From: a bacterium
Lineage (GTDB): Bacteria > Zhuqueibacterota > QNDG01 > DSAB01
Assembly (NCBI GenBank): GCA_011388275.1
Contig: DSAB01000122.1
Coordinates: 15,491 to 79,490, forward strand
Length of the DNA: 64,000 nt
Reading direction: 5' to 3'
The translations under genes and the position numbers were made by a program. A model generated the notes under the pieces. The model was not told where the DNA came from. It was given only the letters and a program-made list of their open reading frames with translations, and did not search any database. Shown piece after piece: positions 15,949 to 33,439 of the stretch; the first letter of the stretch is position 1, and each line of letters starts with the position of its first letter.

Positions 15949-16777
15949 GAGTCCGATCAAGCCGATCTGGTGTCCCGGCTGCGGCGATTACGGCATACTC
16001 AGGGCCTTGCAGCAGGCTCTGCTGGATCTGAATATCGCGCCGGAAAATATTGTGACTGTTTCGGGCATCGGCTGTTCGGGACGTTTTTCTCACTATTTAA
16101 ACACCTATTCTCTGCACGGAACCCACGGACGGGCCGTGCCTACGGCTCTGGGAGCCAAAGCCGCTCGACCCGATTTAACTGTGCTGGCCATCGGAGGCGA
16201 CGGAGATGGTATGGGAATCGGCGGAGGCCATATTCCCCACGCCGCACGCAAGAATGTGGATATCACCTATTTGCTCATCGACAACCGGATTTACGGGCTG
16301 ACCAAAGGCCAAATGTCTCCCACAACCCCTTTCGGGCAAAAGACCAAGACGTCTCCCTACGGAGTCAGTGAGGCGCCAATGAACGCGCTGGCCGTTTTTC
16401 TGGCCTATGATATTTCATTTATCGCCAGAACGGCGAGCATGAATATTCCGGAGATGACGCAAATACTCAAAGCCGCCATTTCACACCGGGGCATGTCATT
16501 GGTTTACATTTTGTCTCCCTGCATGACTTTCCCGGTTTTAAAATCCAGTGAGATCAAAGAGATGGTGCAACCTCTTCCAAAAGAGCATGACCCGGGTAAC
16601 AAATTGGGGGCTCTGGAGCTGGCCTATACAGAGCGGCCCTTGTATACGGGTATTTTCTATCAGGTGCAAAAACCCGTACTGGAAACACAGCTCAAGCAGC
16701 AGGTTCAGGCGGCTTGCCGGCAACTGGCCGATGGCGAGCCGGTAAGCATCAAACAGCTTCTGAAAAGTTACGTCTGA
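15923..16777 (+). CDS. korB: 2-oxoacid:ferredoxin oxidoreductase beta subunit (TPP-binding)
   Basis: CPGCGDYG motif, GIGCSGR and GGDGDG TPP-binding motifs. Overlaps the korA 3' end by 26 nt. Confidence 0.85.
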   Translation: MKRTLQDYKSPIKPIWCPGCGDYGILRALQQALLDLNIAPENIVTVSGIGCSGRFSHYLNTYSLHGTHGRAVPTALGAKAARPDLTVLAIGGDGDGMGIGGGHIPHAARKNVDITYLLIDNRIYGLTKGQMSPTTPFGQKTKTSPYGVSEAPMNALAVFLAYDISFIARTASMNIPEMTQILKAAISHRGMSLVYILSPCMTFPVLKSSEIKEMVQPLPKEHDPGNKLGALELAYTERPLYTGIFYQVQKPVLETQLKQQVQAACRQLADGEPVSIKQLLKSYV

Positions 16778-16809: not shown

Positions 16810-16845
16810 GCTCCCGGAGCGCTTCCCGCCGGGAGCCGTTTTATT
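16810..16845 (+). terminator. Rho-independent terminator candidate after korB
   Basis: Stem GCTCCCGG / CCGGGAGC with an 11-nt loop, followed by CGTTTTATT. Confidence 0.5.
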
Positions 16846-16881
16846 GGGATGTTATCATTCAGCCATTCGCCGGATCGAAGG

Positions 16882-18285
16882 ATGTTTATGAGCTCGGAAT
16901 TTTATGACCGGGATCTTCCCTGGCTTATTCAAACCTATTTTTCAGATCCGAACCGCGTATGCACGCTGGCACCCGCGCAGGTGTTGATGGAAGAGGGTGA
17001 TTACAATGACCGGCTGTACCTGGTTCTGTCCGGAAGCCTTTTTGGATACGTTCAGCGTTCAGAAGGGCAGCCTTACGAAATGTTTCGGGCCAAGCCGAAT
17101 ATGTTTGTCGGTGTCTACAGTTTTTTCTCGCGGACCTATTCCAGTTCGGTTACGGTGGTCGCGGAAGAGCCGACGCGGCTGGCTTACATGGAAAAGGATC
17201 ATGAGCCGGTTGAGAAAGAAAGGCGGGGAGGTCTTTTCGAGCAGTTCATGCCGGTGGTGATCTCCAATCTGGCCTGGCGCCAGCAGCATGAACTTCAGAT
17301 CGCCTTTGAAAAGGAACGCACTCTGAACAAGCTCATCGAATCCGAAAAGCTGGCTTCTCTGGGACAGATGGCGGCGGGAATCGCTCATGAATTGAACAAT
17401 GCCATTTCGGTGCTGGTCCGGAACACGGAATGGTTCAGGGGCTACTTTACACGGCTCCTGAAATCGCAAAAAAGCCCCTTTTTCCCCTTCTATCAGTTGG
17501 GGCAGACGCAGGGCAGGGTGGTATCGAGCCGGGAGGCCAGACGGTGCGTTCAGAGTCTGAAGAGAAAATGGAATGTTTCCGATGCCGACGCGAAAGATCT
17601 GGGAGAGACCGGTATCACGGATGAGATGCTGGCCTCATATCGAGGCGACGTGGCTCAAGATTCCGGTAAAATCCATGAATTCTGGGAACTGGGAGCCACT
17701 CTTCGGGACATGACTCTGGCCGGGCAGATGGCTTCTCATGTGGTGGCTTCGGTCAGGGCGCTCGCCGGACAGAAGCCGGTGCGGACCATGCAAAACGTAA
17801 ACCGGTCCATCGAGGAAGCGCTGGCACTGCTTCACAGCACGCTGCGTTCGGTTCAGGTGACGACCCGGTTTGAAGAGCTGTCGGACATATCGGCGAACAA
17901 GGGAGAGCTGGTTCAGATATGGACCAACCTGATTCGCAACAGCGTGGAGAGTCTGCACGGGCAGGCCGATCCTCCTCCAGTGGTGACGATTTCGACCCTT
18001 TCAAAGAAAACTTACGTGCTTGTCCAGATCAAGGATAACGGTCCGGGCATTCCAAATGATGTGATGCCGAAGATCATTCAACCGAATTTTACCACCAAAG
18101 AAAAGGGCCTGGAATTCGGTTTGGGTTTGGGGCTTACTATAGTCGCCAAAATTGTGAATAATTACGGGGGTGAGATATTCGCGGCGAGCCGGCCTCATGA
18201 AACGATTTTTACGGTTAAACTTCCCGTATTGCCGCGGCCGGAACAAGCCGGGCCGGATTCCGGTGTGGAGAGATCAGAACAGTGA
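16882..18285 (+). CDS. Cytoplasmic sensor histidine kinase: N-terminal cNMP-binding-like domain + HisKA + HATPase_c
   Basis: H-box LGQMAAGIAHELNNAI. N/G boxes (NLIRNSVESL; IKDNGPGIP; GLGLGLTIV). No TM segments. N-terminal LYLVLSGSLFGY region resembles a cyclic-nucleotide-binding fold. Start uncertain (16846-16888). The terminator at 16810-16845 argues against the long ORF from 16714. Confidence 0.75.
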   Translation: MFMSSEFYDRDLPWLIQTYFSDPNRVCTLAPAQVLMEEGDYNDRLYLVLSGSLFGYVQRSEGQPYEMFRAKPNMFVGVYSFFSRTYSSSVTVVAEEPTRLAYMEKDHEPVEKERRGGLFEQFMPVVISNLAWRQQHELQIAFEKERTLNKLIESEKLASLGQMAAGIAHELNNAISVLVRNTEWFRGYFTRLLKSQKSPFFPFYQLGQTQGRVVSSREARRCVQSLKRKWNVSDADAKDLGETGITDEMLASYRGDVAQDSGKIHEFWELGATLRDMTLAGQMASHVVASVRALAGQKPVRTMQNVNRSIEEALALLHSTLRSVQVTTRFEELSDISANKGELVQIWTNLIRNSVESLHGQADPPPVVTISTLSKKTYVLVQIKDNGPGIPNDVMPKIIQPNFTTKEKGLEFGLGLGLTIVAKIVNNYGGEIFAASRPHETIFTVKLPVLPRPEQAGPDSGVERSEQ

Positions 18286-21200
18286 GCGGTAATATGCCGG
18301 CCGCTCCTGCGCCTCGTTCAGGATAGACATTTTGGATCGTTCCAGAGCCACATACGATTTGCTTCCCCAAATGCGTATGGACCGAAGCGTAGGGCTGTCT
18401 ATTCCGCATGTAATCAGGCGCGGTCCCATGGTCAGGCAGCACAGAGTCTCAACTGTATGGCCCCGCAGGCGGTTGAATGACCAGTGGTTCGGTCCGGTTT
18501 CGAGCACCATCAATGTGCCGTTCTTCGAAGATCGAACCGAACACGATCCGATAAAGAGACGGCCGTTCACATAAGGAGTGATGCACCGTATAGAATCTGT
18601 GGTTTTAAATTTTATGGACTGCCATCTCCCGGAGTCCGATTCCATGACCGTCAAGGAGCCTGTCGACTCGTTTGAAAGGCCTGAAGCAAACCAGGCGAGC
18701 CGGTTGTCATTGAGACGGCACAGGCAATCCTGGCTGCAGCCTGTAGCATGATATTGAGTCCAGGTCCGCCGGTCCGGGTTCCAGATTCCCACGGTTCCCG
18801 ATCCTGCCGCGGCTATTCGTCCGTCAGGCAGTGATGCCAAAGACTGAACCGGCGCAAGGCCGGGCTGAATGGTTTCCATCCTTTCTCTCGGGAAATCCCA
18901 GAAACAGATTTTGCCGTCGGCATGGCCGGTCGTCAGACAGCTCTGTGCGCAGGTCTGCATGCTGGTGACCGCGGAAGGCGTGTCGAAAACAGTCTTCAGA
19001 TTGTGAATAAACGACACAGCGGATATGCGGCCGTCTTCATGGAGCGCAAAGACATGGCCGTGTGTGACGGCCAGACCCATCACGGGCGACGGATTCAGGG
19101 GCAGCGTCCAAAAAAGGCGGTCATTCAGTCCGGACAATACACCGACATGGCCCTCCATGCTTCCGAACGCGATTTGACCCTGCGTATAAAGAGCGATGGC
19201 GGAAATTGGCAGGTCTTCCAGGCCGATACATGAAAGGCAAAAATCGTCGGAGGGAACAGGCGGACAGCGCCTGAATCGGCTTTCTCGGGTCTTTATGGAC
19301 TGATACAGCCAGGATATGGGCCGATGATTGACAGGCAAAGAACGTACTGAGAAATCGGCTTTGCCCTTCAAGGGCCGTTTGAGGACCTGATGATTCTCGA
19401 GAGGGCCGACTCGAATCTGTTTGATCCATCCTCTGACTTTCCGGTTCGCGAATATGGCCTGCATCTCTTCCCGGGTCAGGCGCGAAGGAATGGAATTGTC
19501 GAGATGATAAATCAGGAGCCGGTTGTCCCGGTAAAACGGAGTGTCTTCCAGGGGGATTTGCTCGATAAAGGACAGGTTCGTCCTGACCTTTTCAAGAAAT
19601 CCTTCCCGCTTTTCAAGATTCAGGCGCCGCGTTGACAGGGCGGCCTGAAATTTGACCAGAATATCCAGGCTGCCCATCTCATAGAATCGCTGAATCACCT
19701 GATGAAAATAGGCGTCATCTCTCCATCCATCAAGAATGATCAGGCGTTTTTGATGATGACGTTTTATAAATTGCCGAAAAAATTCATCGGCATTTTCGTG
19801 GAGATCCAGGTTGTCCATGGAATAAATATCCGGTGTAACGGTTGTTTGAAGCTTTTTCAGGCCGATCAGACGATTGAATATCTGAACATGGGCCGCATTG
19901 TCCCTCATCAGGTAGAGGATTTCATGCGGCCGGACAGGACCGAATCCGCTTTCAAGAACATGACAAAAATAGGTTTTTCCGGTACCTGAGTCGCCGGTAA
20001 CGGCCATGATCGCGGGCTGACGGGTTTGCATGACATAAAACAGGGATTCGGAAAGCTCATAGAGACCCGTTCGACTGGGTTTCAGCGCCAGAACGGGAAG
20101 CGCGTTGAAGTGGGGAAGGTACAGGGCATAGAGAAAGTTGGGAAGGCCCAGTTTTTTCATGGCCATGACGGCCTCTTCAAAAACCCGGTTATGCCGATTC
20201 TGCATCAGCCTCATCAGATCGATTGGAATGCGGGCATCAAGACCTCCTGATTTTGATTTTTGTGTTCGGCCCAGTTCTCCCAGGGCCCAGGCCCAATAGA
20301 TCTGATCTTCGGGTTTATCAGGAGGGTCCTGATCAAGCAGCTTTTTCAAACTTTCCGGGATTTTCCATTTGCCCAATGTCCAGCAGAATTCGCTCCACTC
20401 AGGTCCAGAGCGCCGGTTTTTCGGGTTTTTCACGGAGAGAGCCGTATCAATGAACTCTCTAAAGTAACGTTTTCCCTTCTCCTGACCCAGGCCGTAGATC
20501 AGCTGAAGACGAAGATTTGAATGCGTATCGGAACACTTTCGAAGAAGCCTCAGAAAGGGACGAATCTTCCGTGTATCGGAAAGTGGAGCCAGAATATTGG
20601 CTGCCTGATACGGAAGACCTGTTTCGATTCGCGATTGAGTCAGAAGACGGAGAGCCGGTCGAATCAGGGGGCGGATGCCGTCATTTTTTACCGCCGGCTG
20701 TGTGATCAATTCCTGAATGAATTCAATCGCATCATCCCGCTGTTTCGGATCATGGAGAAGATGCATCCAGTGATCGATTCGCCCCTGGATCTTTGATTCG
20801 GCGGCGAGAAATGTTGATGATTTCAACAGTTCCCGGCCCGGTTCCCATGATTCCATCCATTGATTGATCGAATTGAGAAAAATTCCCTGGGGACTTGCGT
20901 TTTTCCGTTTCAGCCAGTCTGCGGCTCGCTGCTGCCATTGTGATGCATGAACATCCCACGATGGAGCCTTCTGGCCGAACAGAACGGTCTGCCGCCGGAT
21001 TTCAAGCAGGGCGATCAGCATTTCAAAGAAACGGACACTTTCGGGGCGGGACTGATTGCGCGTTTGAATATCAGGGAATGTAAATATAGGCTCCATTCTG
21101 TTCAGCAGTGGCGTGATCCAGTCCATGTCTTCGATTCCCGATCTCCACAGCCAGTGAGCTGTTTCATTATTGGCTGCCGCACGCGATGTGAAAACAAGAG

Positions 21201-21309
21201 TTTTCCAGTTACCCCGGCGTGATAAACAGACAAAATCGTCGAAGGGATAAACCTTCATGATACTTCGCAGAGAGCTTCGTACTTGTTCTGTCCAGTCGGT
21301 TTTTATCAT
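18274..21309 (-). CDS. 1011-aa multidomain protein: N-terminal HEAT (PBS-lyase-type) repeats, central NB-ARC/STAND-like P-loop NTPase, C-terminal WD40 beta-propeller
   Basis: HEAT-like repeats at aa about 260-390 (…IYGLGQEKGKRYF…; …IYWAWALGELGRT…AVMAMKKLG). Walker A VTGDSGTGKTYF at aa 437-448. Kinase-2-like KRLIILDGWRDD about 85 aa downstream (compare NB-ARC KRFLLVLDDVW). From aa about 700, repeated GH…(D/N)G…W(D/N) units (GHVGVLSG, HGHVFALHEDGRISAV, GHADGKICFWDF, TVGIWNP, RLRGHT…IRIWG). Its ATG overlaps the stop of the upstream response-regulator gene (ATGA). Confidence 0.7.
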   Translation of the reverse strand: MIKTDWTEQVRSSLRSIMKVYPFDDFVCLSRRGNWKTLVFTSRAAANNETAHWLWRSGIEDMDWITPLLNRMEPIFTFPDIQTRNQSRPESVRFFEMLIALLEIRRQTVLFGQKAPSWDVHASQWQQRAADWLKRKNASPQGIFLNSINQWMESWEPGRELLKSSTFLAAESKIQGRIDHWMHLLHDPKQRDDAIEFIQELITQPAVKNDGIRPLIRPALRLLTQSRIETGLPYQAANILAPLSDTRKIRPFLRLLRKCSDTHSNLRLQLIYGLGQEKGKRYFREFIDTALSVKNPKNRRSGPEWSEFCWTLGKWKIPESLKKLLDQDPPDKPEDQIYWAWALGELGRTQKSKSGGLDARIPIDLMRLMQNRHNRVFEEAVMAMKKLGLPNFLYALYLPHFNALPVLALKPSRTGLYELSESLFYVMQTRQPAIMAVTGDSGTGKTYFCHVLESGFGPVRPHEILYLMRDNAAHVQIFNRLIGLKKLQTTVTPDIYSMDNLDLHENADEFFRQFIKRHHQKRLIILDGWRDDAYFHQVIQRFYEMGSLDILVKFQAALSTRRLNLEKREGFLEKVRTNLSFIEQIPLEDTPFYRDNRLLIYHLDNSIPSRLTREEMQAIFANRKVRGWIKQIRVGPLENHQVLKRPLKGKADFSVRSLPVNHRPISWLYQSIKTRESRFRRCPPVPSDDFCLSCIGLEDLPISAIALYTQGQIAFGSMEGHVGVLSGLNDRLFWTLPLNPSPVMGLAVTHGHVFALHEDGRISAVSFIHNLKTVFDTPSAVTSMQTCAQSCLTTGHADGKICFWDFPRERMETIQPGLAPVQSLASLPDGRIAAAGSGTVGIWNPDRRTWTQYHATGCSQDCLCRLNDNRLAWFASGLSNESTGSLTVMESDSGRWQSIKFKTTDSIRCITPYVNGRLFIGSCSVRSSKNGTLMVLETGPNHWSFNRLRGHTVETLCCLTMGPRLITCGIDSPTLRSIRIWGSKSYVALERSKMSILNEAQERPAYYRSLF

Positions 21310-22073
21310 GGCGTCAGGGCCAGAAAAGAAAGTTCTTCATGGAGGTTCAGGGGTGCCAGGATTAAAATCCATCCCCTGTCATACGGATCGTTTCGTGCCG
21401 GCTGTAAATTGTCTTTCATAATTGAATGGATTTCCAGCAGGCATCCTGACACGGGAGACCACATTCGGTGAATACGGCACTCCTGGTCATAAATTTGCAG
21501 ACACGTGTTTCCCTGATAGATGGTTTCATTGATCTCCGGGAATTCCAGTCTGGTTACTCCGGGGATGGTCTTTAAAAAAACAGGATGAATGCCTACGCGG
21601 ACGGCTCCATTGGGCAATACCTGAGCCCAGGCGTGATCAGGAATCAGGTAGTAATTGGAAGGGGCCGATTCGGTGTCTCGGTTGTTTGGGGATTGCTTCA
21701 AAGAAAGCCGTTTGTGAACCAGTGCCCTCTTGACGAGGGCGCGGAGTTCTTCAGGTGTAAATGGTTTCGGAATATAATCGAATGCGCCGTTCTTAATGGA
21801 TTGAACCGCCGTGCGCGTGGAAGGGTAGCCGGTCACCATTATGATCTGAGTGCCTGGTCTTTTCTTTTTCAGGATTGTTAAAATATCCATGCCGCTCATT
21901 CCGGGCATCATAATATCGAGAATCATAATGTCAAATGCGTCCTCGAGTGCCAAACGGAGCCCTTCTTCACCGCTTAATGCCGTGCAGACTTCATACGAAT
22001 TTTCCAAAGCAGCGGCCATACTTTGGCAGACAGAAATTTCGTCGTCGACAATCAATACTCTGGATTGATTCAT
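21306..22073 (-). CDS. Response regulator: canonical REC domain fused to a glycine-cleavage H-protein (GcvH)-like C-terminal domain that lacks the lipoyl-lysine
   Basis: REC with DD(10-11), D53, T81, K103. C-terminal 115 aa aligns by eye to GcvH (YLIPDHAWA… / VGIHPVFLKTIPGVTRLEFPEIN… / …SPVSG… / DPYDRGWILILAP, compare GcvH DPYGEGWIFKIK). The lipoyl-Lys position of the ESVKA motif is occupied by Cys. Confidence 0.75.
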   Translation of the reverse strand: MNQSRVLIVDDEISVCQSMAAALENSYEVCTALSGEEGLRLALEDAFDIMILDIMMPGMSGMDILTILKKKRPGTQIIMVTGYPSTRTAVQSIKNGAFDYIPKPFTPEELRALVKRALVHKRLSLKQSPNNRDTESAPSNYYLIPDHAWAQVLPNGAVRVGIHPVFLKTIPGVTRLEFPEINETIYQGNTCLQIYDQECRIHRMWSPVSGCLLEIHSIMKDNLQPARNDPYDRGWILILAPLNLHEELSFLALTP

Positions 22074-22420
22074 GTGTCACCCCTTGAAGAAGTGCCGTTG
22101 TTCTTCACGGTTAAGGGGATCAGCAGCCCGGTGAAAAAACCGCCCCTTCAGTATCGGTGAGTGAGAGGATAAGGTTATCTTCATCATTTCGGATTCGTAT
22201 CAATTCCTTTATCGTCTAGAATAGTATACGATTACGGATTAACGAAAGCAAGCAATTTGTATCGGTATTCTGAAGCCGAATCCAAACAGGCGTTTTGGCA
22301 TCGTCCGGCGGCCAATAAAAATCTAAGGGAAATATTGGAGAATCGAATGATTTTTTAGTGAATTATATCACAAAAAAACTTGACAAAAATTTAAATTTAT
22401 TGTATATTTTCTCGGATTTA

Positions 22421-22438
22421 TTGTGAACGGTTTAACAA
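22421..22438. promoter_or_regulatory. Candidate Rex operator (TTGTGAACGGTTTAACAA) upstream of rex
   Basis: Matches the Rex box consensus TTGTGAA-N4-TTCACAA with one mismatch. Lies 50 nt upstream of the rex start in an AT-rich promoter region. Confidence 0.5.
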
Positions 22439-22487
22439 AATACGATAGGGTGTCTGACTGGCGAATCATCGGGGAAAATCCTGAATC

Positions 22488-23120
22488 ATGACACAAACAG
22501 GCAAAAGCGCATCCCGTCTGCCCTGTTACCGCCGCGCGCTGATGCGTTTCAAGGAGCTGGGATTCGACAGGGTTTATTCAGAATCGCTCGCTGAATCGGT
22601 GGGTGTCACCTCTTCCCAGGTGAGGAAGGATTTTTCCGTATTCGGCATTTCAGGCAATAAAAAGGGCGGCTATCAGATTGAGACCCTGCTCGATCAACTC
22701 CGTATTATCCTGAAAAAGGACCAGATCCATCCGGTTATACTGGTTGGGGTGGGCAATATCGGGACGGCCCTGATGAACTACAGGGCTTTTGAAAGGGAGA
22801 ATATTGAAATCGTCGCCGGATTCGACATCGATCCGTCGAAGATCAATAAAAAGATGAAAATTCCTGTTCTGCCCATCAACGCGATGGATGATTATTTAAA
22901 ACACCATCAGGTTCGAATAGGCATCATCACGGTGCCGGCGTTGACGGCTCAGCAGGTGTGCAACCGAATGGTTTCTGCAGGCATTAAAGGGATACTGAAT
23001 TTCGCTCCAATCCGGCTGAAAGTGCCGGATGATACCATGATCGAGAATGTGAGTGTGCTGTTAAAACTGGAAAACATCATTTATTTTGTTGAACCCGTTG
23101 TAAACACCGAACCCATTTAA
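22488..23120 (+). CDS. rex: Redox-sensing transcriptional repressor Rex
   Basis: N-terminal winged helix (RLPCYRR…SSQVRKDFS) and Rossmann NADH-binding domain (VILVGVGNIGTAL). 210 aa. Confidence 0.9.
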   Translation: MTQTGKSASRLPCYRRALMRFKELGFDRVYSESLAESVGVTSSQVRKDFSVFGISGNKKGGYQIETLLDQLRIILKKDQIHPVILVGVGNIGTALMNYRAFERENIEIVAGFDIDPSKINKKMKIPVLPINAMDDYLKHHQVRIGIITVPALTAQQVCNRMVSAGIKGILNFAPIRLKVPDDTMIENVSVLLKLENIIYFVEPVVNTEPI

Positions 23121-23133
23121 CCGGAGCCTTTTC

Positions 23134-24159
23134 ATGAGAGCAGTCAAAATCAAGAAGGAAAATCTGTTTGATTTTCTCGAGGCCATCAAGCCTTTCGGTG
23201 ACTTATGGGGTCCTGTGAAAAGCGGAGACGGATATGTCCTGGAGAAAGTGACCGATTATTCGAACATCGAGATGTCGGCTCTGAGAACCAGGATTCCGTT
23301 CAAGAAACTGCTTTTTCCGCCCAAATTCACCATGTTCAAGTTTGATGAGAAGGGGATTCGTTCTTCCGACGAGGAACTCCCGAGACAGGTGATTTTCGGG
23401 CTGCATCCCTGCGATCTTCATGCTTTGCTCATTATGGACAATTTTCACAGTCTTCATTATGTCGATCCCTATTATCGGGAGCGCCGGGAGAGAACGGCCG
23501 TAATCGGTCTTTCGTGTTTTCCGGATGACCGCTGTTTCTGCAAGGCCACCAATACACATTACACGGAGAAGGGGTTTGATCTTTTTCTGACCGATCTGGG
23601 AGATTTCTACATTCTCTGGATCGGATCGAGTCTGGGTGACGACATGGTTCGCGAATGTCCCGAGCTTGTCGATGAGGAGGTCACTCACGACGACCTGGAA
23701 AAGTACATCGCCTGGCGAAAGAAAAGAGAGTCCAATTTTAAACTGAAACTGGATTTCACGGGCATGCCCAGTATCATGGAGCTCAGTTATGACAGTCCTT
23801 TGTGGGACGAACTGGGAGAAAAATGCCTCAGCTGCGGCGCCTGCACCATCGTGTGTCCGACATGTCCCTGCTTCAATGTGATCGATGAAGTGGATATCGG
23901 CGGCGGCACCGGAGAGCGTACCCGCCGCTGGGATTCCTGCATGTTCAGAGAATACTCCATGGTGGCCGGAGGACATAATTTCCGGGAGGCCCGGTCCGAA
24001 CGGCTCAAGCTGCGATTCACCCACAAGCTTCAGGCTTTTGTCGGCGCCTTCGGTGAAGCCGCGTGTGTAGGGTGCGGCCGCTGCATCGGAGCCTGTCCCG
24101 TGGATATCGACATACAGACCGTGGCGCAGAATCTGAAAGGCGAGGAGGTGAAGGCATGA
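23134..24159 (+). CDS. Group-3b (sulfhydrogenase-type) hydrogenase beta subunit: Fe-S protein of the HydB/AsrA family
   Basis: C-terminal Cys clusters CLSCGACTIVCPTCPC and CVGCGRCIGACP. 13 nt after rex with a GGAG RBS. Followed by gamma, small and large subunits. Confidence 0.75.
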   Translation: MRAVKIKKENLFDFLEAIKPFGDLWGPVKSGDGYVLEKVTDYSNIEMSALRTRIPFKKLLFPPKFTMFKFDEKGIRSSDEELPRQVIFGLHPCDLHALLIMDNFHSLHYVDPYYRERRERTAVIGLSCFPDDRCFCKATNTHYTEKGFDLFLTDLGDFYILWIGSSLGDDMVRECPELVDEEVTHDDLEKYIAWRKKRESNFKLKLDFTGMPSIMELSYDSPLWDELGEKCLSCGACTIVCPTCPCFNVIDEVDIGGGTGERTRRWDSCMFREYSMVAGGHNFREARSERLKLRFTHKLQAFVGAFGEAACVGCGRCIGACPVDIDIQTVAQNLKGEEVKA

Positions 24160-25010
24160 AAGCGGAAACACAGCTGCAGAATCCTTACGAACCGGAACCC
24201 ATGCGCCTGATACGACGATACCCTCTGAATGAGGACGTGCATTTTTTCCAGGTTCGCGCGGTGGATATGGAGAAGGCGCTCAGCCTGAATTATCTGCCCG
24301 GCCAGTTCATGATGATCTCTATCAACGGGATCGGAGAAGCCCCGTTTTCCATCTCTTCGACCCCCTCGAGGCCGGGTCTTCTGGAATTCGGTATTCGGAA
24401 AGTGGGCAATATGACCAACCGGATCTTTCAGCTGAAAGAAAACGGCATTTTCGGCGTGCGCGGGCCTTACGGCAACGGTTTTCCGATCGAGAAAATAAAG
24501 GGGAACGATCTGGTGATCATCATGGGCGGTCTGGGCGCGGTTCCGCTTCGATCCCTTCTTTTATACGCGCTCGATAATCGTGATCAGTTTGGAAAGATCT
24601 ATCTGCTGCACGGCGCCCGCACTCCGGATGAGATGCTTTTCCGGAATGAATTTTTTAATATGATGAAACGGGACGATCTTTTCTGCCATCTCACCGTAGA
24701 TCAGGACGATACCGGACAGTGGCCCTTTGAGACAGGCGTGGTCACCCGTCTTTTCGGCAAACTGGCCCATATCGATCCGAAGAACACCTATTTCGCCGTG
24801 TGCGGTCCTCCGGTCATGTATAAATTTGTGGTGGCGGAAATATTAAAATTGAATGTTCCCAAGCATCAGATTCTGATGACTCTGGAACGGCGCATGAAAT
24901 GCGGAGTGGGGAAATGCGGTCATTGCATTATCGGCGGGTATATTTATACCTGCCTGGAGGGACCCGTGTTTTCCTATTGGGACGTGCTTCACATGAAGGG
25001 ACTTATCTAA
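24156..25010 (+). CDS. Hydrogenase gamma subunit: FAD/NAD(P)-binding ferredoxin-reductase-like with C-terminal 2Fe-2S (HydG/AsrB family)
   Basis: FNR-like fold (flavin-binding GEAPFSIS-type motif, NAD-binding GGLGAVPLRS). C-terminal CGVGKCGHC…C cluster. ATGA overlap with the beta gene. GAGGAGG RBS. Confidence 0.75.
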   Translation: MKAETQLQNPYEPEPMRLIRRYPLNEDVHFFQVRAVDMEKALSLNYLPGQFMMISINGIGEAPFSISSTPSRPGLLEFGIRKVGNMTNRIFQLKENGIFGVRGPYGNGFPIEKIKGNDLVIIMGGLGAVPLRSLLLYALDNRDQFGKIYLLHGARTPDEMLFRNEFFNMMKRDDLFCHLTVDQDDTGQWPFETGVVTRLFGKLAHIDPKNTYFAVCGPPVMYKFVVAEILKLNVPKHQILMTLERRMKCGVGKCGHCIIGGYIYTCLEGPVFSYWDVLHMKGLI

Positions 25011-25011
25011 T

Positions 25012-25806
25012 ATGAGGAGTCAACTCGTGAGTCAGGAAAAAAAATCGGTTGGTCTCTACGGTTTTACCGGCTGCAACGGAGACCAGCTTGTGATCATCCA
25101 TAGCGAGGACCAGCTTCTTCCATTCTTCGATTCCGCGAATATCAAGTCCTTTTCCCTGGCGAAAAGCGACAACGATAATTCCGAGCTCGATCTGGCTTTT
25201 GTGGAAGGATCCATATCCAGTCAGGAGCAGGCGGAGCATGTTAAGGCGATTCGGGAGCGGACCCGGTATCTGGTGGCCATCGGCAATTGCGCGTGTTACG
25301 GCGGCATACAGGCCATGGAGCTGGGAGCCAAAGGATGGGATCAGCGGTTCAGAAAAGTATACGGCGACGGATTCTTTATCAACCGCACACCGATCGAATC
25401 CAAGCCCATCGATGTGTTCGTCAATGTGGATTTCTATCTGCCTGGATGCCCCATCGATGCCCGGCAGTTTTTCTACTGTTTCGCCCATTTTCTGCAGGAT
25501 GATGAGCCGGTTTTTCCCGATTATCCTGTTTGCGCGGAATGCCGCTGGCGGGAAAACGACTGTCTGCTCCTGAAAGGAGAGCTTTGTCTGGGGCCGCTCA
25601 CCGCGGCAGGATGCGGAGCCCGATGCCCCAGTCATAATCTGACCTGTCTGGGGTGTTGGGGCCCCATGAAAGAAGCCAATATCGGCGCGGAGTTTAATCT
25701 GCTGAAGGAGAAAGACTATTCACTCGAAGAGATCAAGCGTCGGTTCCGCATGCATACCGGCAGCGGAATGATGAAACCCTTGAAGAAATTATTGGGAGCC
25801 TTATAA
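25012..25806 (+). CDS. [NiFe]-hydrogenase small (delta) subunit, cytoplasmic group-3 type
   Basis: GLYGFTGCNGD proximal-cluster motif and CPGCP motif. 264 aa. No Tat signal. Confidence 0.8.
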   Translation: MRSQLVSQEKKSVGLYGFTGCNGDQLVIIHSEDQLLPFFDSANIKSFSLAKSDNDNSELDLAFVEGSISSQEQAEHVKAIRERTRYLVAIGNCACYGGIQAMELGAKGWDQRFRKVYGDGFFINRTPIESKPIDVFVNVDFYLPGCPIDARQFFYCFAHFLQDDEPVFPDYPVCAECRWRENDCLLLKGELCLGPLTAAGCGARCPSHNLTCLGCWGPMKEANIGAEFNLLKEKDYSLEEIKRRFRMHTGSGMMKPLKKLLGAL

Positions 25807-27092
25807 TGCGTGAAATCGTGGTTGAACCACTCTCCCGCGTGGAAGGGGAAGGCGGCATTACCGTCCAGCTGGACGGAAAGCGGATCAAGGATGTCCGTTT
25901 TGATATATTGGAAGGAACACGGCTTATCGAAACACTGGTGGTCGGAAAAACACCTCAGGAAGATGTGAGTATCGCCTGCCGAATCTGCGCGATCTGCACC
26001 CTTTCCCATCGGTATGCCGCGTTGAGGGGGCTGGAAAAGGCCCTGGGCATCGAGATACCTCCCAAGGCGCATCACATGCGCAGCCTCATGCATCTGGGCG
26101 AATGCCTGGAGAGCAACTCTCTTCACGTGTTCGTTCTGGCGCTGCCCGACTTTCTGGGTTATCCTTCGGCGATTGCCATGGCCGAGAAATACGGCAATGA
26201 GGTGACTCAGGCTCTGGCATTGAAGAAATTCGCCAATCACATCATGGAGGTGACCAGCGGCCGTATGATTCACGGCGAGAATCCGACCATAGGCGGATTC
26301 GGCCGGTATCCGGACCGGGAAGTTCTCCTGAACATCAAAAAGCAGGCCAGGGATTTCCTGGAATTCGCCGTGTACGGCACCAATCTTGTGGCCGGGCTGG
26401 ACATTCCTTCCTTTTTTGAGAAAGAAACCGTATTCATGTGCTGTGAGCCCGGAAATGAGTTCGGCCTCATGGGTGACTCGATTCGCATTTCCACCGGGGA
26501 GGTCGTGGACTGTAACGACTATAAAAAACTGACCAATGAGAAATTCTGTCCGCATTCGGCGGCCAAGCACTGTCTTTATAAAGGAAAACCATTTACGGTG
26601 GGGGCTCTCGCCCGCGTCAACAATCTTGGTGAGCGCCTGAAGGGCCAGGCCGGAAAACTGTTCAAAAAGCACTGGAATGATCGCTGGCTGAAAAATCCGA
26701 TCTACAACAACCACGCCCAGGCTGTTGAGATTGTATGGGCTCTCGAGCAGATCCCGGGAGTGGTCGATGATATCCTGAAAATCAAGGAGGATCCCGCTCT
26801 GGTCAAACCCGCCCGGACCGAAGGCGAAGGGGTCGGCGCGGTTGAGGCGCCCCGCGGGACTCTGTACCATCATTATCAAATCAAGGATGGTCTGATCGCG
26901 GACGCCAACTTTATCATCCCAACGGGTCAGAACCTTGAAGACATTGAGAAATACATGCGGCTGGCTGTTCAGGGGATGATCGACCAGGGCGCCGATGATG
27001 ACGCGATTCGTCTGCAGCTGGAAATCATCTGCCGTGCCTATGACCCCTGCATCAGCTGTTCGACCCATATGGTAAGGATTGAGCGTGTCTGA
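25806..27092 (+). CDS. [NiFe]-hydrogenase large (alpha) subunit, group 3b
   Basis: N-terminal RICAICTLSH (CxxC) and C-terminal DPCISCSTH (CxxC…H) Ni-Fe ligand motifs. The C-terminal extension after H is a substrate for the maturation protease. Confidence 0.85.
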   Translation: MREIVVEPLSRVEGEGGITVQLDGKRIKDVRFDILEGTRLIETLVVGKTPQEDVSIACRICAICTLSHRYAALRGLEKALGIEIPPKAHHMRSLMHLGECLESNSLHVFVLALPDFLGYPSAIAMAEKYGNEVTQALALKKFANHIMEVTSGRMIHGENPTIGGFGRYPDREVLLNIKKQARDFLEFAVYGTNLVAGLDIPSFFEKETVFMCCEPGNEFGLMGDSIRISTGEVVDCNDYKKLTNEKFCPHSAAKHCLYKGKPFTVGALARVNNLGERLKGQAGKLFKKHWNDRWLKNPIYNNHAQAVEIVWALEQIPGVVDDILKIKEDPALVKPARTEGEGVGAVEAPRGTLYHHYQIKDGLIADANFIIPTGQNLEDIEKYMRLAVQGMIDQGADDDAIRLQLEIICRAYDPCISCSTHMVRIERV

Positions 27093-28115: not shown

Positions 28116-29120
28116 ATGGCAGAACGCTACTTTATCGGTAAAGTGCAATGGAGCACTCTTCTCGGTGGCTGGATGGAGAAATACCAGATTTTGGCGCCCC
28201 AGAAGCATGAAGGGGGACTTTTTCTGGAGCCCGTCAGCATGGAAAATCTGTCCACGATTGTCTATGATGCAGCGCGGGCCGTGCAGCCCCTGAAAGCCTT
28301 TCTGTTTCCGGCGCTGGAAGAGGTGACTGGAGAAAAGGCCGAGCCGGAAAAACCCTGGCTCTTTCTGGGAATCAAGGCGTGCGGCCTTTCGGCTCTGCCC
28401 ATTCTGGATCAGGCCTATGGCGGTGAATTCGCCGATCCCCATTATCAGAAACGGCGCCAGGAGAGTCTTATCGTCAGTTCGGATTGTTCGCAGCCGTGGG
28501 AGACCTGTTTCTGTACACTGATCGGCGGAAAGCCTTATCCCTCAGAAGGTTTCGATCTCAATCTTTCCAAAGTCTGGGATGGTTTTATCGTGGAGGCAGG
28601 CAGCGCACGGGGCAAGGCTCTGCTGGAGGGGCATGATGAAGTCCTGAAAGAAGTGGTGAAGGAGGAAGCGGAAGCACTCGACAAGATGCGCAAGGAGACC
28701 GTTTCAAAGATCGAAAAGCAGAACAAGGAGTACCGTCTGCCCGCCGATCTTCAAAAATTGATGGCGGGATCCTGGGAATCCGATGTATGGAAGGTTCATT
28801 CAGAAACCTGCGTGGAATGCGGTGCCTGCAACCATGCCTGTCCGACCTGCCACTGTTATTTCCTGGATGATGTGACCCGCAAAGAGTTTGTCAAGCTCAG
28901 AGGGTGGGACGCCTGTCAATATTCCGGATATGCGGTTACAGCCGGCGGAGGCACACCCAGACCCCATCTGTATGAACGGTTTCGCAATCGGTATTTCTGC
29001 AAGATAAAGTATCTCTTTGAAAACTACAACCGTCTCGGCTGCACGGGATGCGGCCGTTGCATCGAAGGATGTCAGGGACGCATCGATATGCGTGCTGCGC
29101 TGAACGATCTGACAAAATAA
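28116..29120 (+). CDS. Second sulfhydrogenase-beta/AsrA-like Fe-S subunit (paralog of 23134..24159)
   Basis: Same architecture and Cys motifs (CVECGACNHACPTCHCYFLDD; CTGCGRCIEGCQG). Confidence 0.7.
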   Translation: MAERYFIGKVQWSTLLGGWMEKYQILAPQKHEGGLFLEPVSMENLSTIVYDAARAVQPLKAFLFPALEEVTGEKAEPEKPWLFLGIKACGLSALPILDQAYGGEFADPHYQKRRQESLIVSSDCSQPWETCFCTLIGGKPYPSEGFDLNLSKVWDGFIVEAGSARGKALLEGHDEVLKEVVKEEAEALDKMRKETVSKIEKQNKEYRLPADLQKLMAGSWESDVWKVHSETCVECGACNHACPTCHCYFLDDVTRKEFVKLRGWDACQYSGYAVTAGGGTPRPHLYERFRNRYFCKIKYLFENYNRLGCTGCGRCIEGCQGRIDMRAALNDLTK

Positions 29121-29134
29121 GGGACCAATTTTCC

Positions 29135-29953
29135 ATGGGTCAGCCAAAGAATCCATATCAGCCGGTCAAAGCCGTTATTGAGAATATCATCGACGAAACT
29201 CCCGGGATCAAGACGTTTGTAATTAAACCTGAAGAGGCATTCGGTTTTCATTGCGGCCAGTTTGCCGAATTGACGGTGCCGGGGGTGGGGGAAGGGCCTT
29301 TTGCCATGTCGTCGCCCTGCCATAAACCCGAGATGCTGGAATTTACCATTCAAAATGTCGGTTACATGACCCAGCGGCTGCACAAGATGAAAAAGGGAGA
29401 TGTGGTGGGTGTTCGCGGTCCTTACGGCAACGGGTTCCCTCTGGAGAAGTATTACGGCAAGGAGGTGGTGCTGCTTATCGGAGGAGTGGGTTTTCCCCCT
29501 GCCCGTGCCTTGCTTTACAGCCTGCTTCATGAAAAGGATAAATTCAAGCGCCTTCTGATGTGTTACGGAGCCAGGACACCCCAGGATGTTGTGTACAAAT
29601 ATCAAATCGAAGATTTTCGCAAACAAATCGAACTCCATATGACGGTAGACAAGGCCGACGAGAGCTGGAAAGAGACGGAAGGCGTTGTCACTGTTCTGCT
29701 GGACAAAGTCAATTTTGATTTGAAAAATGCCGTGTCTGTGGTTATCGGTCCGCCGATCATGATGAAATTCGGGACTCTGAAACTCCTGGAAAAGGGTTTC
29801 AAACCCAGGGACATCTTTCTTTCCATGGAAAGAAAGATGTACTGCGGCATCGGACAGTGCCGCCATTGCATGATCGATCATCTATTCATCTGCAAGGACG
29901 GCCCTGTGTTCACTTATCAAGAGCTCAAGGACTTTCCTGACATTTGGGAATGA
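29135..29953 (+). CDS. Second sulfhydrogenase-gamma/AsrB-like FAD/NAD(P)-binding subunit with 2Fe-2S
   Basis: FNR-like domains (GEGPFAMSSP; LLIGGVGFPPARA). C-terminal CGIGQCRHCMIDHLFICKDG cluster. Confidence 0.7.
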   Translation: MGQPKNPYQPVKAVIENIIDETPGIKTFVIKPEEAFGFHCGQFAELTVPGVGEGPFAMSSPCHKPEMLEFTIQNVGYMTQRLHKMKKGDVVGVRGPYGNGFPLEKYYGKEVVLLIGGVGFPPARALLYSLLHEKDKFKRLLMCYGARTPQDVVYKYQIEDFRKQIELHMTVDKADESWKETEGVVTVLLDKVNFDLKNAVSVVIGPPIMMKFGTLKLLEKGFKPRDIFLSMERKMYCGIGQCRHCMIDHLFICKDGPVFTYQELKDFPDIWE

Positions 29954-32258: not shown

Positions 32259-33439
32259 GCGAAATCATTCCCATTGGCCCTTATCATCCATTGCAGGAAG
32301 AGCCTGAATTTTTCAGACTGCACGTCGAAGGTGAAATCGTCAAGAAGCTGGAAATCGAGATCGGCTATAACCATCGCGGCATCGAAAAGCTGGCGGAATC
32401 CAAATCATGGGATCAGGTTGTCTTTCTGGTGGAAAGAATCTGCGGAATCTGTTCAACGAGCCATCCGGCTGCTTCCATCTGCGCCATGGAGGATCTGGGA
32501 GGGATCGAGGCTCCGGAGAGGGCTCAGTATATACGCACCGTCATCTGTGAACTGGAACGGGTTCATTCCCATATGCTCTGGCTGGGTCTGGCCGGTCATT
32601 TCATCGGATACAACACGGTCTGGATGTGGGTCTGGAAATACCGTGAAATCGTGTGCGACCTGCTGGACAAGATCACGGGAAACCGCCAAAGTTACGCCAT
32701 GTTCAAATGCGGCGGCGTCCGAAGGGATATTCTGGATGAGGATATGCTCTGGATACGCCAATCTTTGAACAAACTCAAGCCGGCTCTCGATCTGTTCAAG
32801 GGCGCGGTCATGGATGATCCGGTGATTCACGCGAGGACCAAGGGCGTCGGTGTTCTGACCAGGCAGCAGGCCATCGATTATTGCGTGGTCGGACCCACGG
32901 CCAGACCGTCCGGAGTGGCCATCGATGTGCGAAAAGACAATCCCTATTTCGCGTATGACTGGATCGATTGGGATATTGTCGTCTTGGAAGAAGGCGATGT
33001 GTTTTCCAAGACGGCTGTCCGAATTCTGGAAATGTATGAATCCATCAAGATCATCGAGCAGTGTCTTGACAAGATGAAGCCCGGCGTTATCGATCTGCAT
33101 GTCAAGGAGCTGCCCGCCGGAGAAGGCGTCGGCCGCGCGGAGGCGCCGAGGGGAGAGGTCTTCCACTACTGCATGAGCGACGGGTCCAATTTCCCCATGC
33201 GGTACAAGGTCCGGGCGCCCAGCTATACCAATATCTTTTCCAATGAAGCCGCCTGTGTGGGTCAGACTGTGGCCGATGCGGCTCTGGTGCTGGCCGCGGT
33301 GGATCCCTGTTATTGCTGCACGGAACGTTCCATCACCGTGAGAAACGATCGCGGAGAGGAAAATATTTTGACCGGCGGTGATCTCATCCGGCTTTCTCAT
33401 GAGAGAACCAAACAAATCAGAAAAGAATTGGGTGTATAA
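32255..33439 (+). CDS. Group-4 [NiFe]-hydrogenase large subunit (NuoD-like; MbhL/MbxL/EchE/HycE type)
   Basis: N-terminal ERICGICSTSH (RxCGxCxxxH) and C-terminal DPCYCCTER metal-ligand motifs. 394 aa. Confidence 0.8.
   Translation: MSEIIPIGPYHPLQEEPEFFRLHVEGEIVKKLEIEIGYNHRGIEKLAESKSWDQVVFLVERICGICSTSHPAASICAMEDLGGIEAPERAQYIRTVICELERVHSHMLWLGLAGHFIGYNTVWMWVWKYREIVCDLLDKITGNRQSYAMFKCGGVRRDILDEDMLWIRQSLNKLKPALDLFKGAVMDDPVIHARTKGVGVLTRQQAIDYCVVGPTARPSGVAIDVRKDNPYFAYDWIDWDIVVLEEGDVFSKTAVRILEMYESIKIIEQCLDKMKPGVIDLHVKELPAGEGVGRAEAPRGEVFHYCMSDGSNFPMRYKVRAPSYTNIFSNEAACVGQTVADAALVLAAVDPCYCCTERSITVRNDRGEENILTGGDLIRLSHERTKQIRKELGV

Follow-up and report, generated by a model that had tools for sequence, protein, structure and literature searches.

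Bacterial two-component systems are usually read as a sensor kinase that signals to a transcription factor. Some response regulators, such as those of the CheY, DivK, RssB and PhyR types, consist of a canonical receiver with no DNA-binding output and are presumed to act by binding a partner protein. Here we describe a pair of coupled genes from a stretch of 64,000 nucleotides of an uncultured bacterium (GTDB lineage Zhuqueibacterota; NCBI GenBank assembly GCA_011388275.1, contig DSAB01000122.1, positions 15,491 to 79,490; the whole stretch is called the window below), which encode a response regulator of 255 amino acids and a protein of 1011 amino acids, hereafter the big protein. The regulator shares with the CheY-like group its canonical receiver, the lack of a DNA-binding output and presumed partner binding, and differs in that its output is a degenerate GcvH domain and its partner a coupled giant protein with P-loop, HEAT and WD40 regions. 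The arrangement thus departs from the usual scheme: a disabled lipoyl carrier stands at the output, a giant protein with an orphan P-loop domain is the only conserved partner, and all carriers are uncultured. We consider it probable on balance that the two genes supply the output side of a conserved three-gene cassette, in which the regulator gates the P-loop domain, likely a phosphotransferase. By analogy, the logic of the cassette would be that of a two-component system with a protein-binding regulator, as for RssB or PhyR.

Several described protein groups resemble parts of this module. P-loop kinases (adenylate, uridine, PRK and APS kinases, Clp1/Grc3 and PSTK) have in common with the big protein a compact five-stranded fold and an order of motifs that runs from Walker A (GxxxxGKT) through an Asp base past strand 2 and an hhhhD Walker B to an Arg-rich, LID-like helix pair. 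Clp1/Grc3 further resemble the big protein in having additional domains around the kinase core. The domain described here differs from these enzymes in belonging to none of their families by sequence (PRK, AAA_18 and AAA_33 all score under the cut-off) and in being embedded in a HEAT/WD40 protein of 1000 residues. The STAND ATPases of the Apaf-1, NB-ARC and NACHT types, including Avs, share with the big protein a P-loop domain followed by C-terminal WD40 repeats in a large multidomain chain; the big protein differs in its P-loop class as judged by fold neighbors, in a D-G rather than D-[DE] Walker B, and in having no HD1/winged-helix arm, recognizable effector or defense context. A looser analogy is offered by Vps15, Raptor and LRRK2/Roco, which combine a nucleotide-binding or kinase module, an alpha-solenoid and WD40 repeats in one polypeptide. 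Their catalytic modules are not homologous to that of the big protein (eukaryotic protein kinase or Roc GTPase versus P-loop kinase-like), which differs further in its domain order, its bacterial origin and its wiring to a two-component system. Finally, GcvH and GcvH-like lipoyl carriers have a fold homologous to that of the regulator's output domain and share with it the motifs W...G, SPVSG and DPY.EGW; the regulator domain is set apart by a Cys in place of the lipoyl-lysine, an HRxW hairpin, its fusion to a receiver and the lack of a glycine-cleavage context. In the literature we found neither a report of a GcvH-type domain as a response-regulator output nor a published description of the cassette, in keeping with an original prediction, made from the sequence of the window, that the module is undescribed.

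The two genes belong to a conserved three-gene cassette

Both genes lie on the minus strand of the window, with the following features.

21306 to 22073, minus strand: response regulator gene, 255 residues, receiver plus GcvH-like output (open reading frame; Response_reg and GCV_H above the Pfam cut-offs; Shine-Dalgarno sequence)
21732 to 22058, minus strand: receiver (REC) domain, residues 6–114, with an intact phospho-acceptor pocket (five catalytic residues invariant in 72 family members)
21327 to 21644, minus strand: GcvH-like domain, residues 144–249, without the lipoyl-lysine (profile matches; lipoyl-lysine column)
21306 to 21309, minus strand: ATGA overlap of the regulator stop and the big-gene start (sequence; family N-termini; N-terminal model)
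18274 to 21309, minus strand: gene for the 1011-residue protein with helical, HEAT, P-loop kinase-like and WD40 regions (open reading frame; at least 289 homologues)
20620 to 21309, minus strand: N-terminal helical domain of the big protein, residues 1–230
20125 to 20616, minus strand: HEAT repeats, about residues 232–395, degenerate in the window copy (Pfam at the family level; profile matches to alphaRep)
19405 to 20118, minus strand: orphan P-loop kinase-like domain, residues 398–635
19972 to 19995, minus strand: Walker A motif, residues 439–446
Residues 636–699 of the big protein: linker ahead of the WD40 region, little conserved, with a predicted local distance difference test score (pLDDT) below 50 in the model
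18277 to 19212, minus strand: WD40 beta-propeller region, about residues 700–1011 (WD40 families in 36 of 38 homologues; profile match to 2ymu_A)

Conservation of this arrangement was assessed in four metagenomic and 80 genome loci, about 85 in all. Immediately ahead of the big gene, and in the same orientation, a GcvH-like domain is encoded in every locus with upstream DNA except one, and the gap between the two genes is mostly 0–25 nt or an overlap. Directly upstream of the regulator, in turn, lies a gene for a Cache_3-Cache_2/HAMP/HisKA/HATPase histidine kinase, present in every one of the 70 loci whose upstream sequence extends for 2 kb or more; in the eight loci where it is missing, the contig breaks off. 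The two genes had been proposed to form a tightly coupled module, and they are kept together in essentially every relative; their joint occurrence in about 85 loci strongly contradicts a lack of synteny. A companion histidine kinase had also been anticipated, and relatives do carry one, upstream and of the Cache/HAMP type, while the convergent kinase with a cyclic nucleotide monophosphate (cNMP)-binding-like sensor is confined to the window. No further gene near the cassette recurs in more than about 19 of the 85 loci, those that do recur reflecting clade-level synteny, and gcvT, gcvP and lipoyl-ligase genes are absent from the conserved neighbors.

The coupling of the two genes in the window is visible at their junction (...ACGCCATGATAAAA; GCC-ATGA-TAAAA), where the regulator TGA and the big-gene ATG share the ATGA, as the original prediction had noted and as the open reading frames and junction sequence bear out. 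A Shine-Dalgarno sequence (AAGGGGTG) stands 5 nt ahead of the regulator ATG and none was found ahead of the ATGA start of the big gene, so that coupling by termination and reinitiation fits. The product listed by NCBI for the big gene (P0001, ‘MAG TPA bacterium ENN03_09715’) has 994 residues and begins at M18. In relatives, 33–41 residues precede an invariant Trp; the window protein has 34 such residues when read from the ATGA start and 17 when read from M18. A model of residues 1–240 (pLDDT 89.9) contains a helix at residues 6–19 that an M18 start would cut. The family N-termini and this helix favor the longer start overlapping the regulator stop. The public record of this protein probably lacks its first 17 residues (window positions 21259 to 21309).

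Departures from the canonical arrangement are few. The exceptional locus, from a member of the Stahlbacteria (L014, 6597–6962), encodes a receiver-only regulator of 121 residues that follows a Cache kinase and whose stop overlaps the start of the big gene. Zixibacteria loci have two tandem REC-GcvH genes ahead of the big gene, and three loci (L010, L011 and L013) have an insert of 1.5–1.8 kb between kinase and regulator, which in L010 is a CoA-transferase-like gene. In Zixibacteria SM23_81 the cassette occurs twice, on separate contigs (L006, 3669–5373; L009, 4782–6471), each time with tandem REC-GcvH genes.

All carriers of the compared loci are metagenome-assembled genomes (MAGs), comprising about 29 Aminicenantes, about 27 labeled ‘uncultured Eubacteriales’, and Gemmatimonadota, WOR-3, Zixibacteria and others. 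The ‘uncultured Eubacteriales’ label is suspect because most such loci have flanking genes of the Aminicenantes type. The cassette also occurs on two contigs of the bin ‘Candidatus Heimdallarchaeota MAG_8’ (L012 and L076), probably through contamination. Overall, it is carried by about 100 species-level GTDB genomes, all from uncultured lineages that also include KSB1 and Eisenbacteria, and is represented by hundreds of metagenomic proteins. It appears mostly to be present in one copy per genome (three MAGs gave two loci each). Synteny is stable and seemingly vertical within clades, with no mobile-element context, and the flanking genes have housekeeping functions (tRNA synthetase, pst, Ham1, hydrogenase). 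At 15 loci, all from one clade of the Aminicenantes type, the Cache kinase gene is preceded by a divergent gene for a PstS-like protein; at the one of these whose neighbors were annotated (L004, 680–4483), this gene belongs to a pstSCAB-like set of transporter genes together with a phosphate-selective porin. This adjacency was discarded as a functional clue because it is inherited synteny of one clade only.

The central domain of the big protein resembles P-loop kinases

The big protein belongs to a family of at least 289 homologues of about 1050 residues at 30–37% identity, found in KSB1, Eisenbacteria, WOR-3, Aminicenantes and unclassified MAGs, of which the window copy is the most divergent. 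When searched alone against Pfam, the window protein gives no HEAT match, a WD40 match of 24.6 bits (under the cut-off of 27), weak matches to AAA_22, AAA_18 and PRK, and none to NB-ARC or NACHT. Across 38 homologues, HEAT_2 is found in 37, HEAT_PBS in 34 and WD40 in 36, and the family profile matches the bacterial WD40 protein 2ymu_A at 1.8e-55 and alphaRep HEAT proteins at about 1e-22. Of the three-part architecture originally proposed, the Walker A motif and KRLIILDGWRDD are present as described, and the HEAT and WD40 parts are clear in the family and weak in the window copy. A fold search with the N-terminal domain returned generic solenoid matches only; as modeled, this domain appears to be a generic helical scaffold and not an effector.

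In the central domain, GDSGTGKT (G439–T446) and KRLIILDGWRDD (residues 521–532) are present in the window protein and invariant across the 38 homologues, as are R469-D470 past strand 2, LIILDG (residues 523–528) and STRRLNLEEREG. An Arg-rich, LID-like segment, STRRLNLEKREG, spans residues 559–570, with S559, T560, R562, N564, E566 and R568 invariant. The Walker B motif is of the D-G type: D527 and G528 are invariant in the 38 sequences, and the second acidic residue of the STAND hhhhD[DE] motif is missing. With a mean column identity of 69%, against 47% overall, the central domain is better conserved than any other region of the big protein, and this strong conservation argues for one conserved substrate or partner.

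A model of residues 385–697 (38 homologues) contains a five-stranded alpha/beta unit with a core pLDDT of 85–98. Beyond Walker B, about 107 residues, modeled as two strands and some short helices, lead up to the linker. The 50 best Foldseek matches are P-loop kinases, with the exception of two FtsY entries, and the alignments span about the full length of the domain; the kinases include adenylate kinase, PRK, thymidylate, APS, gluconate and shikimate kinases, PNKP and PSTK. By two methods, the structural neighbors are exclusively P-loop proteins of the kinase/GTPase class. The domain thus combines a Walker A motif, an acidic residue past strand 2, an Arg-rich LID, a five-stranded core and kinase neighbors, the features of P-loop kinases, with the motifs in putative catalytic roles. 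On this model-based evidence, the central domain looks like a kinase-type rather than a STAND-type fold.

The domain is nonetheless an orphan. In a search of PDB sequences with the central-domain profile, only noise at the level of Walker A was obtained (KaiC, RAD51D and PRK, E 0.02–0.8). When isolated domains from 19 members were compared with Pfam, all 19 matched PRK (PF00485), the best match having an E of 0.014 and a score of 14.8 bits where the cut-off is 22; AAA_18 reached 1.2e-5, again under its cut-off, and AAA_22 and AAA_33 stayed below theirs. Exhaustive scanning of 1.84 billion cluster representatives with HMMER found 64 proteins that carry the central domain, all with the same architecture or fragments thereof except two (P0285 and P0286, about 3400 residues). 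These two match a 60-residue stretch of the kinase-like domain 11 times and give spurious zero-stretch matches only in Pfam, and they were set aside as repetitive-sequence artefacts. As all remaining proteins have this one architecture, we regard the domain as an orphan. The original prediction had named an ordinary small-molecule kinase, for example of the PRK/uridine-kinase family, with no STAND arm or winged helix, as the finding that would speak against it. The fold is of that kind, kinase-type and without arm or winged helix; membership of an ordinary kinase family is not borne out.

The best-surviving alternative, which we rate as possible though clearly less probable than a phosphotransferase, is that the P-loop domain acts as a nucleotide-dependent switch or timer and that the big protein, as a scaffold or accessory regulator, assembles with or feeds back on the two-component pair in what would amount to a three-component system. 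HEAT and WD40 repeats are classic scaffolding modules, no substrate can be identified, and a kinase accompanies the cassette throughout, all of which would suit a switch. Against this, both methods place kinases at the top of their matches (the two FtsY entries among the Foldseek top 50 excepted), the domain has an Arg-rich LID-like segment and an invariant R-D past strand 2, and inspection of the consensus by eye revealed no guanine-specificity motif of the NKxD type.

The original prediction had placed the big protein with Apaf-1 and the NB-ARC-type ATPases. In such a scheme a STAND/NOD-type ATPase (Apaf-1- or Avs-like) would oligomerize when its WD40 repeats sense a ligand, with a phospho-receiver attached. 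The order of a P-loop and then WD40 repeats agrees with that scheme, and the family profile does match Apaf-1, solely through its WD40 repeats. The isolated domain also gives sub-threshold matches to NACHT in 18 of the 19 members (best 1e-4), to NB-ARC in four (best 5e-3) and to nSTAND in about five; these cover the stretch from Walker A to Walker B only. The hidden Markov models for STAND domains (NB-ARC, NACHT and others), by which the classification was to be checked, give no score that reaches the curated cut-off for the window protein or any of the 38 homologues, Walker B reads LIILDG with an invariant D-G, and the chain runs for about 107 residues past Walker B straight into a disordered linker, so that the model has no helical arm (HD1) or winged helix between the P-loop domain and the WD40 region. 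Together with kinase/GTPase-class fold neighbors, an N-terminal domain that is a generic helical scaffold and a lack of PADLOC matches, this makes a STAND ATPase improbable, and we rejected the Apaf-1 classification on profile, motif, model and fold-neighbor evidence. A P-loop, an hhhhD motif and WD40 repeats seen in a sequence are not enough to call a STAND ATPase.

The response regulator has an intact receiver and a GcvH-like domain without the lipoyl-lysine

The regulator was predicted to join a receiver to a GcvH-like domain, and both parts exceed their Pfam cut-offs. Response_reg matches residues 6–114 with an E of 1.8e-28 and 99.4 bits (cut-off 30.2), and the receiver set D10, D11, D53, T81 and K103 is invariant in 72 family members. 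GCV_H matches residues 144–249 with 33.8 bits (cut-off 22.2). The family profile of the output domain matches authentic GcvH at about 1e-20, which identifies the domain as a true GcvH homologue. As a single query, the window GcvH-like domain matched one protein in a search with a word prefilter; an alignment-based repeat of the search gave mostly genuine GcvH and fragments.

At the position of the lipoyl-lysine the window protein has Cys199, and among the 72 members the commonest residues are Gly (18), Lys (14) and Asn (13). The hairpin that bears this residue has a one-residue insertion relative to GcvH and a family signature, QG...HRxWSPxSG, where GcvH has ESVK. From these sequence features, the reading we favor is that the domain was exapted for protein interaction. 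An active lipoyl or acyl carrier, which would tie the regulator to glycine-cleavage-type or redox metabolism, would suit the clear homology to real GcvH with a GCV_H score above the cut-off, the Lys that 14 of the 72 members have at this place in the hairpin and the redox enzymes that adjoin some loci. This role is very improbable given that Lys is missing from the window copy and about 80% of the family, that ESVK is replaced in a longer hairpin, that no gcvT, gcvP or lipoyl-ligase gene belongs to the conserved neighborhood and that L014 dispenses with the domain altogether; we rejected a lipoylated carrier for the window copy and most of the family.

Cysteines are conserved in both proteins. 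In the regulator, C16 is found in 67 and C191 in 64 of the 72 members (window numbering); in the big protein, C219, C449 and C958 are invariant or nearly so, and the invariant C449 adjoins Walker A. These near-invariant residues may confer thiol or redox sensitivity on both proteins.

The window carries a rearranged version of the cassette

The surroundings of the gene pair in the window are as follows.

16849 to 18285, plus strand: histidine kinase, soluble and convergent with the big gene; cNMP-binding-like sensor, HisKA-type H-box and HATPase_c domain (Pfam; start at 16849 or 16888)
22074 to 22487, no strand: control region shared by the regulator operon and the divergent rex (two Rex-box-like palindromes; promoter-like hexamers)
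22488 to 27092: rex and a cytoplasmic NiFe hydrogenase (Fer4_22, FAD/NAD, small and large subunits)
28194 to 29926: second, paralogous pair of Fer4_22 and FAD/NAD subunits
32318 to 33184: weak matches to the hydrogenase large subunit

No Cache kinase is encoded anywhere in the 64-kb window. The soluble kinase that converges on the big gene is the only kinase, and the regulator the only receiver, in this stretch. Its cNMP_binding match (37.6 bits, cut-off 27.5) and its HATPase_c match exceed their cut-offs, its HisKA H-box is weak, and the 12-nt 3' overlap with the big gene holds base by base, with the kinase TGA at 18283–18285 and the big-gene stop at 18274–18276. The soluble convergent kinase of the original prediction is thereby confirmed, in an arrangement unique to the window among the compared loci. 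That this kinase is the partner of the regulator here is plausible.

Judging from a terminator-like hairpin at 16821–16836 and a GAAGGA ahead of the ATG at 16888, the reading frame of the kinase probably starts at 16849 or 16888 and not at 16714. The phosphate-binding cassette of the sensor domain (16888–17400) reads FVGVYSFFSRTYSSSVTVVA and, by eye, is without the usual G-E and R-[ST]-A; because of this non-canonical cassette, the ligand of the kinase may not be cAMP or cGMP.

Upstream of the regulator lie a 414-nt AT-rich region, a divergent rex gene and then the genes for a four-subunit NiFe hydrogenase. The AT-rich region contains two Rex-box-like palindromes, at 22356–22373 (two mismatches to TTGTGAANNNNTTCACAA) and 22421–22438 (one mismatch), which are the only matches to TTGTGAANNNNTTCACAA with up to two mismatches in the 64 kb, against a background of 9 per 1.05 Mb. 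Both overlap or adjoin promoter-like hexamers, which occur on both strands. Such boxes occur in one of 70 loci and were rejected as a property of the cassette at large.

In the closest relatives (L085, 1695–12096; L001, 742–11138), genes for a hydrogenase of the type seen in the window, HycI, the Cache kinase, the REC-GcvH regulator and the big protein run in one direction, a layout which indicates that the hydrogenase neighborhood is ancestral in the clade of the window. Judged by gene order, the window differs from this clade layout by an inversion, the presence of rex and the loss of the Cache kinase. A NiFe hydrogenase lies within 7–9 kb of the cassette in about eight of 87 loci, from several clades. 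A functional link of the cassette to H2 or redox metabolism may exist, the neighborhoods being suggestive and not general.

Discussion

Giant P-loop/WD40 proteins are common in defense islands. An anti-phage or conflict system in which the WD40 repeats sense invader proteins is nevertheless the least credible explanation of the module, and we rejected it, since PADLOC gives no significant match (E 0.04 for the big protein and 1e-3 for a generic receiver match), the flanks are housekeeping genes in stable, vertical-looking synteny without mobile elements, the catalytic core shows strong conservation instead of diversification, and a survey of giant P-loop/WD40-type conflict systems (PMC7159879) does not mention GcvH, lipoyl or Cache domains.

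The explanation we prefer, a phospho-regulator that gates a kinase-like P-loop protein, starts from the canonical order of the cassette, in which a membrane-bound Cache/HAMP histidine kinase is followed by the regulator with its receiver and non-lipoylated GcvH-like domain and by the protein of about 1050 residues. The kinase would phosphorylate Asp53 of the receiver. The regulator, without a DNA-binding or enzymatic output of its own, would then contact the big protein, which is co-translated with it and would be made in fixed proportion to it; the HEAT or WD40 surfaces could provide the docking platform. This contact would switch the P-loop domain, most likely an ATP-dependent phosphotransferase acting on a single conserved substrate. 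In favor of a direct tie between receiver and big protein, their coupling persists in L014 without any GcvH-like domain. In the window, where the canonical Cache kinase has been lost, the convergent cNMP-like kinase would be the sole candidate input to an operon that diverges from rex and the NiFe hydrogenase genes.

Several observations weigh against parts of this explanation. At the level of sequence the central domain is ambiguous, with NACHT standing beside AAA_18, AAA_22 and PRK and all of them sub-threshold, and no known kinase family was detectable by HMMER in the 1.84 billion representatives; the assignment to the kinase class relies on fold neighbors and motifs. The cassette and its conservation, the intact receiver residues, the missing lipoyl-lysine and the kinase-type fold are seen in the data, and we infer from them the contact between regulator and big protein, the direction of signaling, catalysis and the pairing with the convergent kinase; the big protein could equally act upstream of the two-component pair or feed back on it. 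The phosphohistidine (DHp) helix of the window kinase has 18 identities in 57 positions, compared with 26–52 for family members, and its likeness to the canonical kinases is limited to a generic H-box.

More tentatively, and with rather less confidence than in the cassette itself, we suggest that these genes represent an unrecognized pathway of uncultured Acidobacteriota and FCB-type phyla, in which a His-Asp relay would run through a non-lipoylated receiver-GcvH protein to an orphan P-loop kinase on a HEAT-WD40 scaffold; in the clade of the window, it may be tied to the cytoplasmic NiFe hydrogenase and NADH (Rex) redox state. If this holds, the output of a two-component system would be a second, unrelated kinase activity instead of transcription. 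An active P-loop kinase under the control of a phospho-regulator would mean a new class of two-component output, a GcvH domain exapted for a new role, and a new kinase family.

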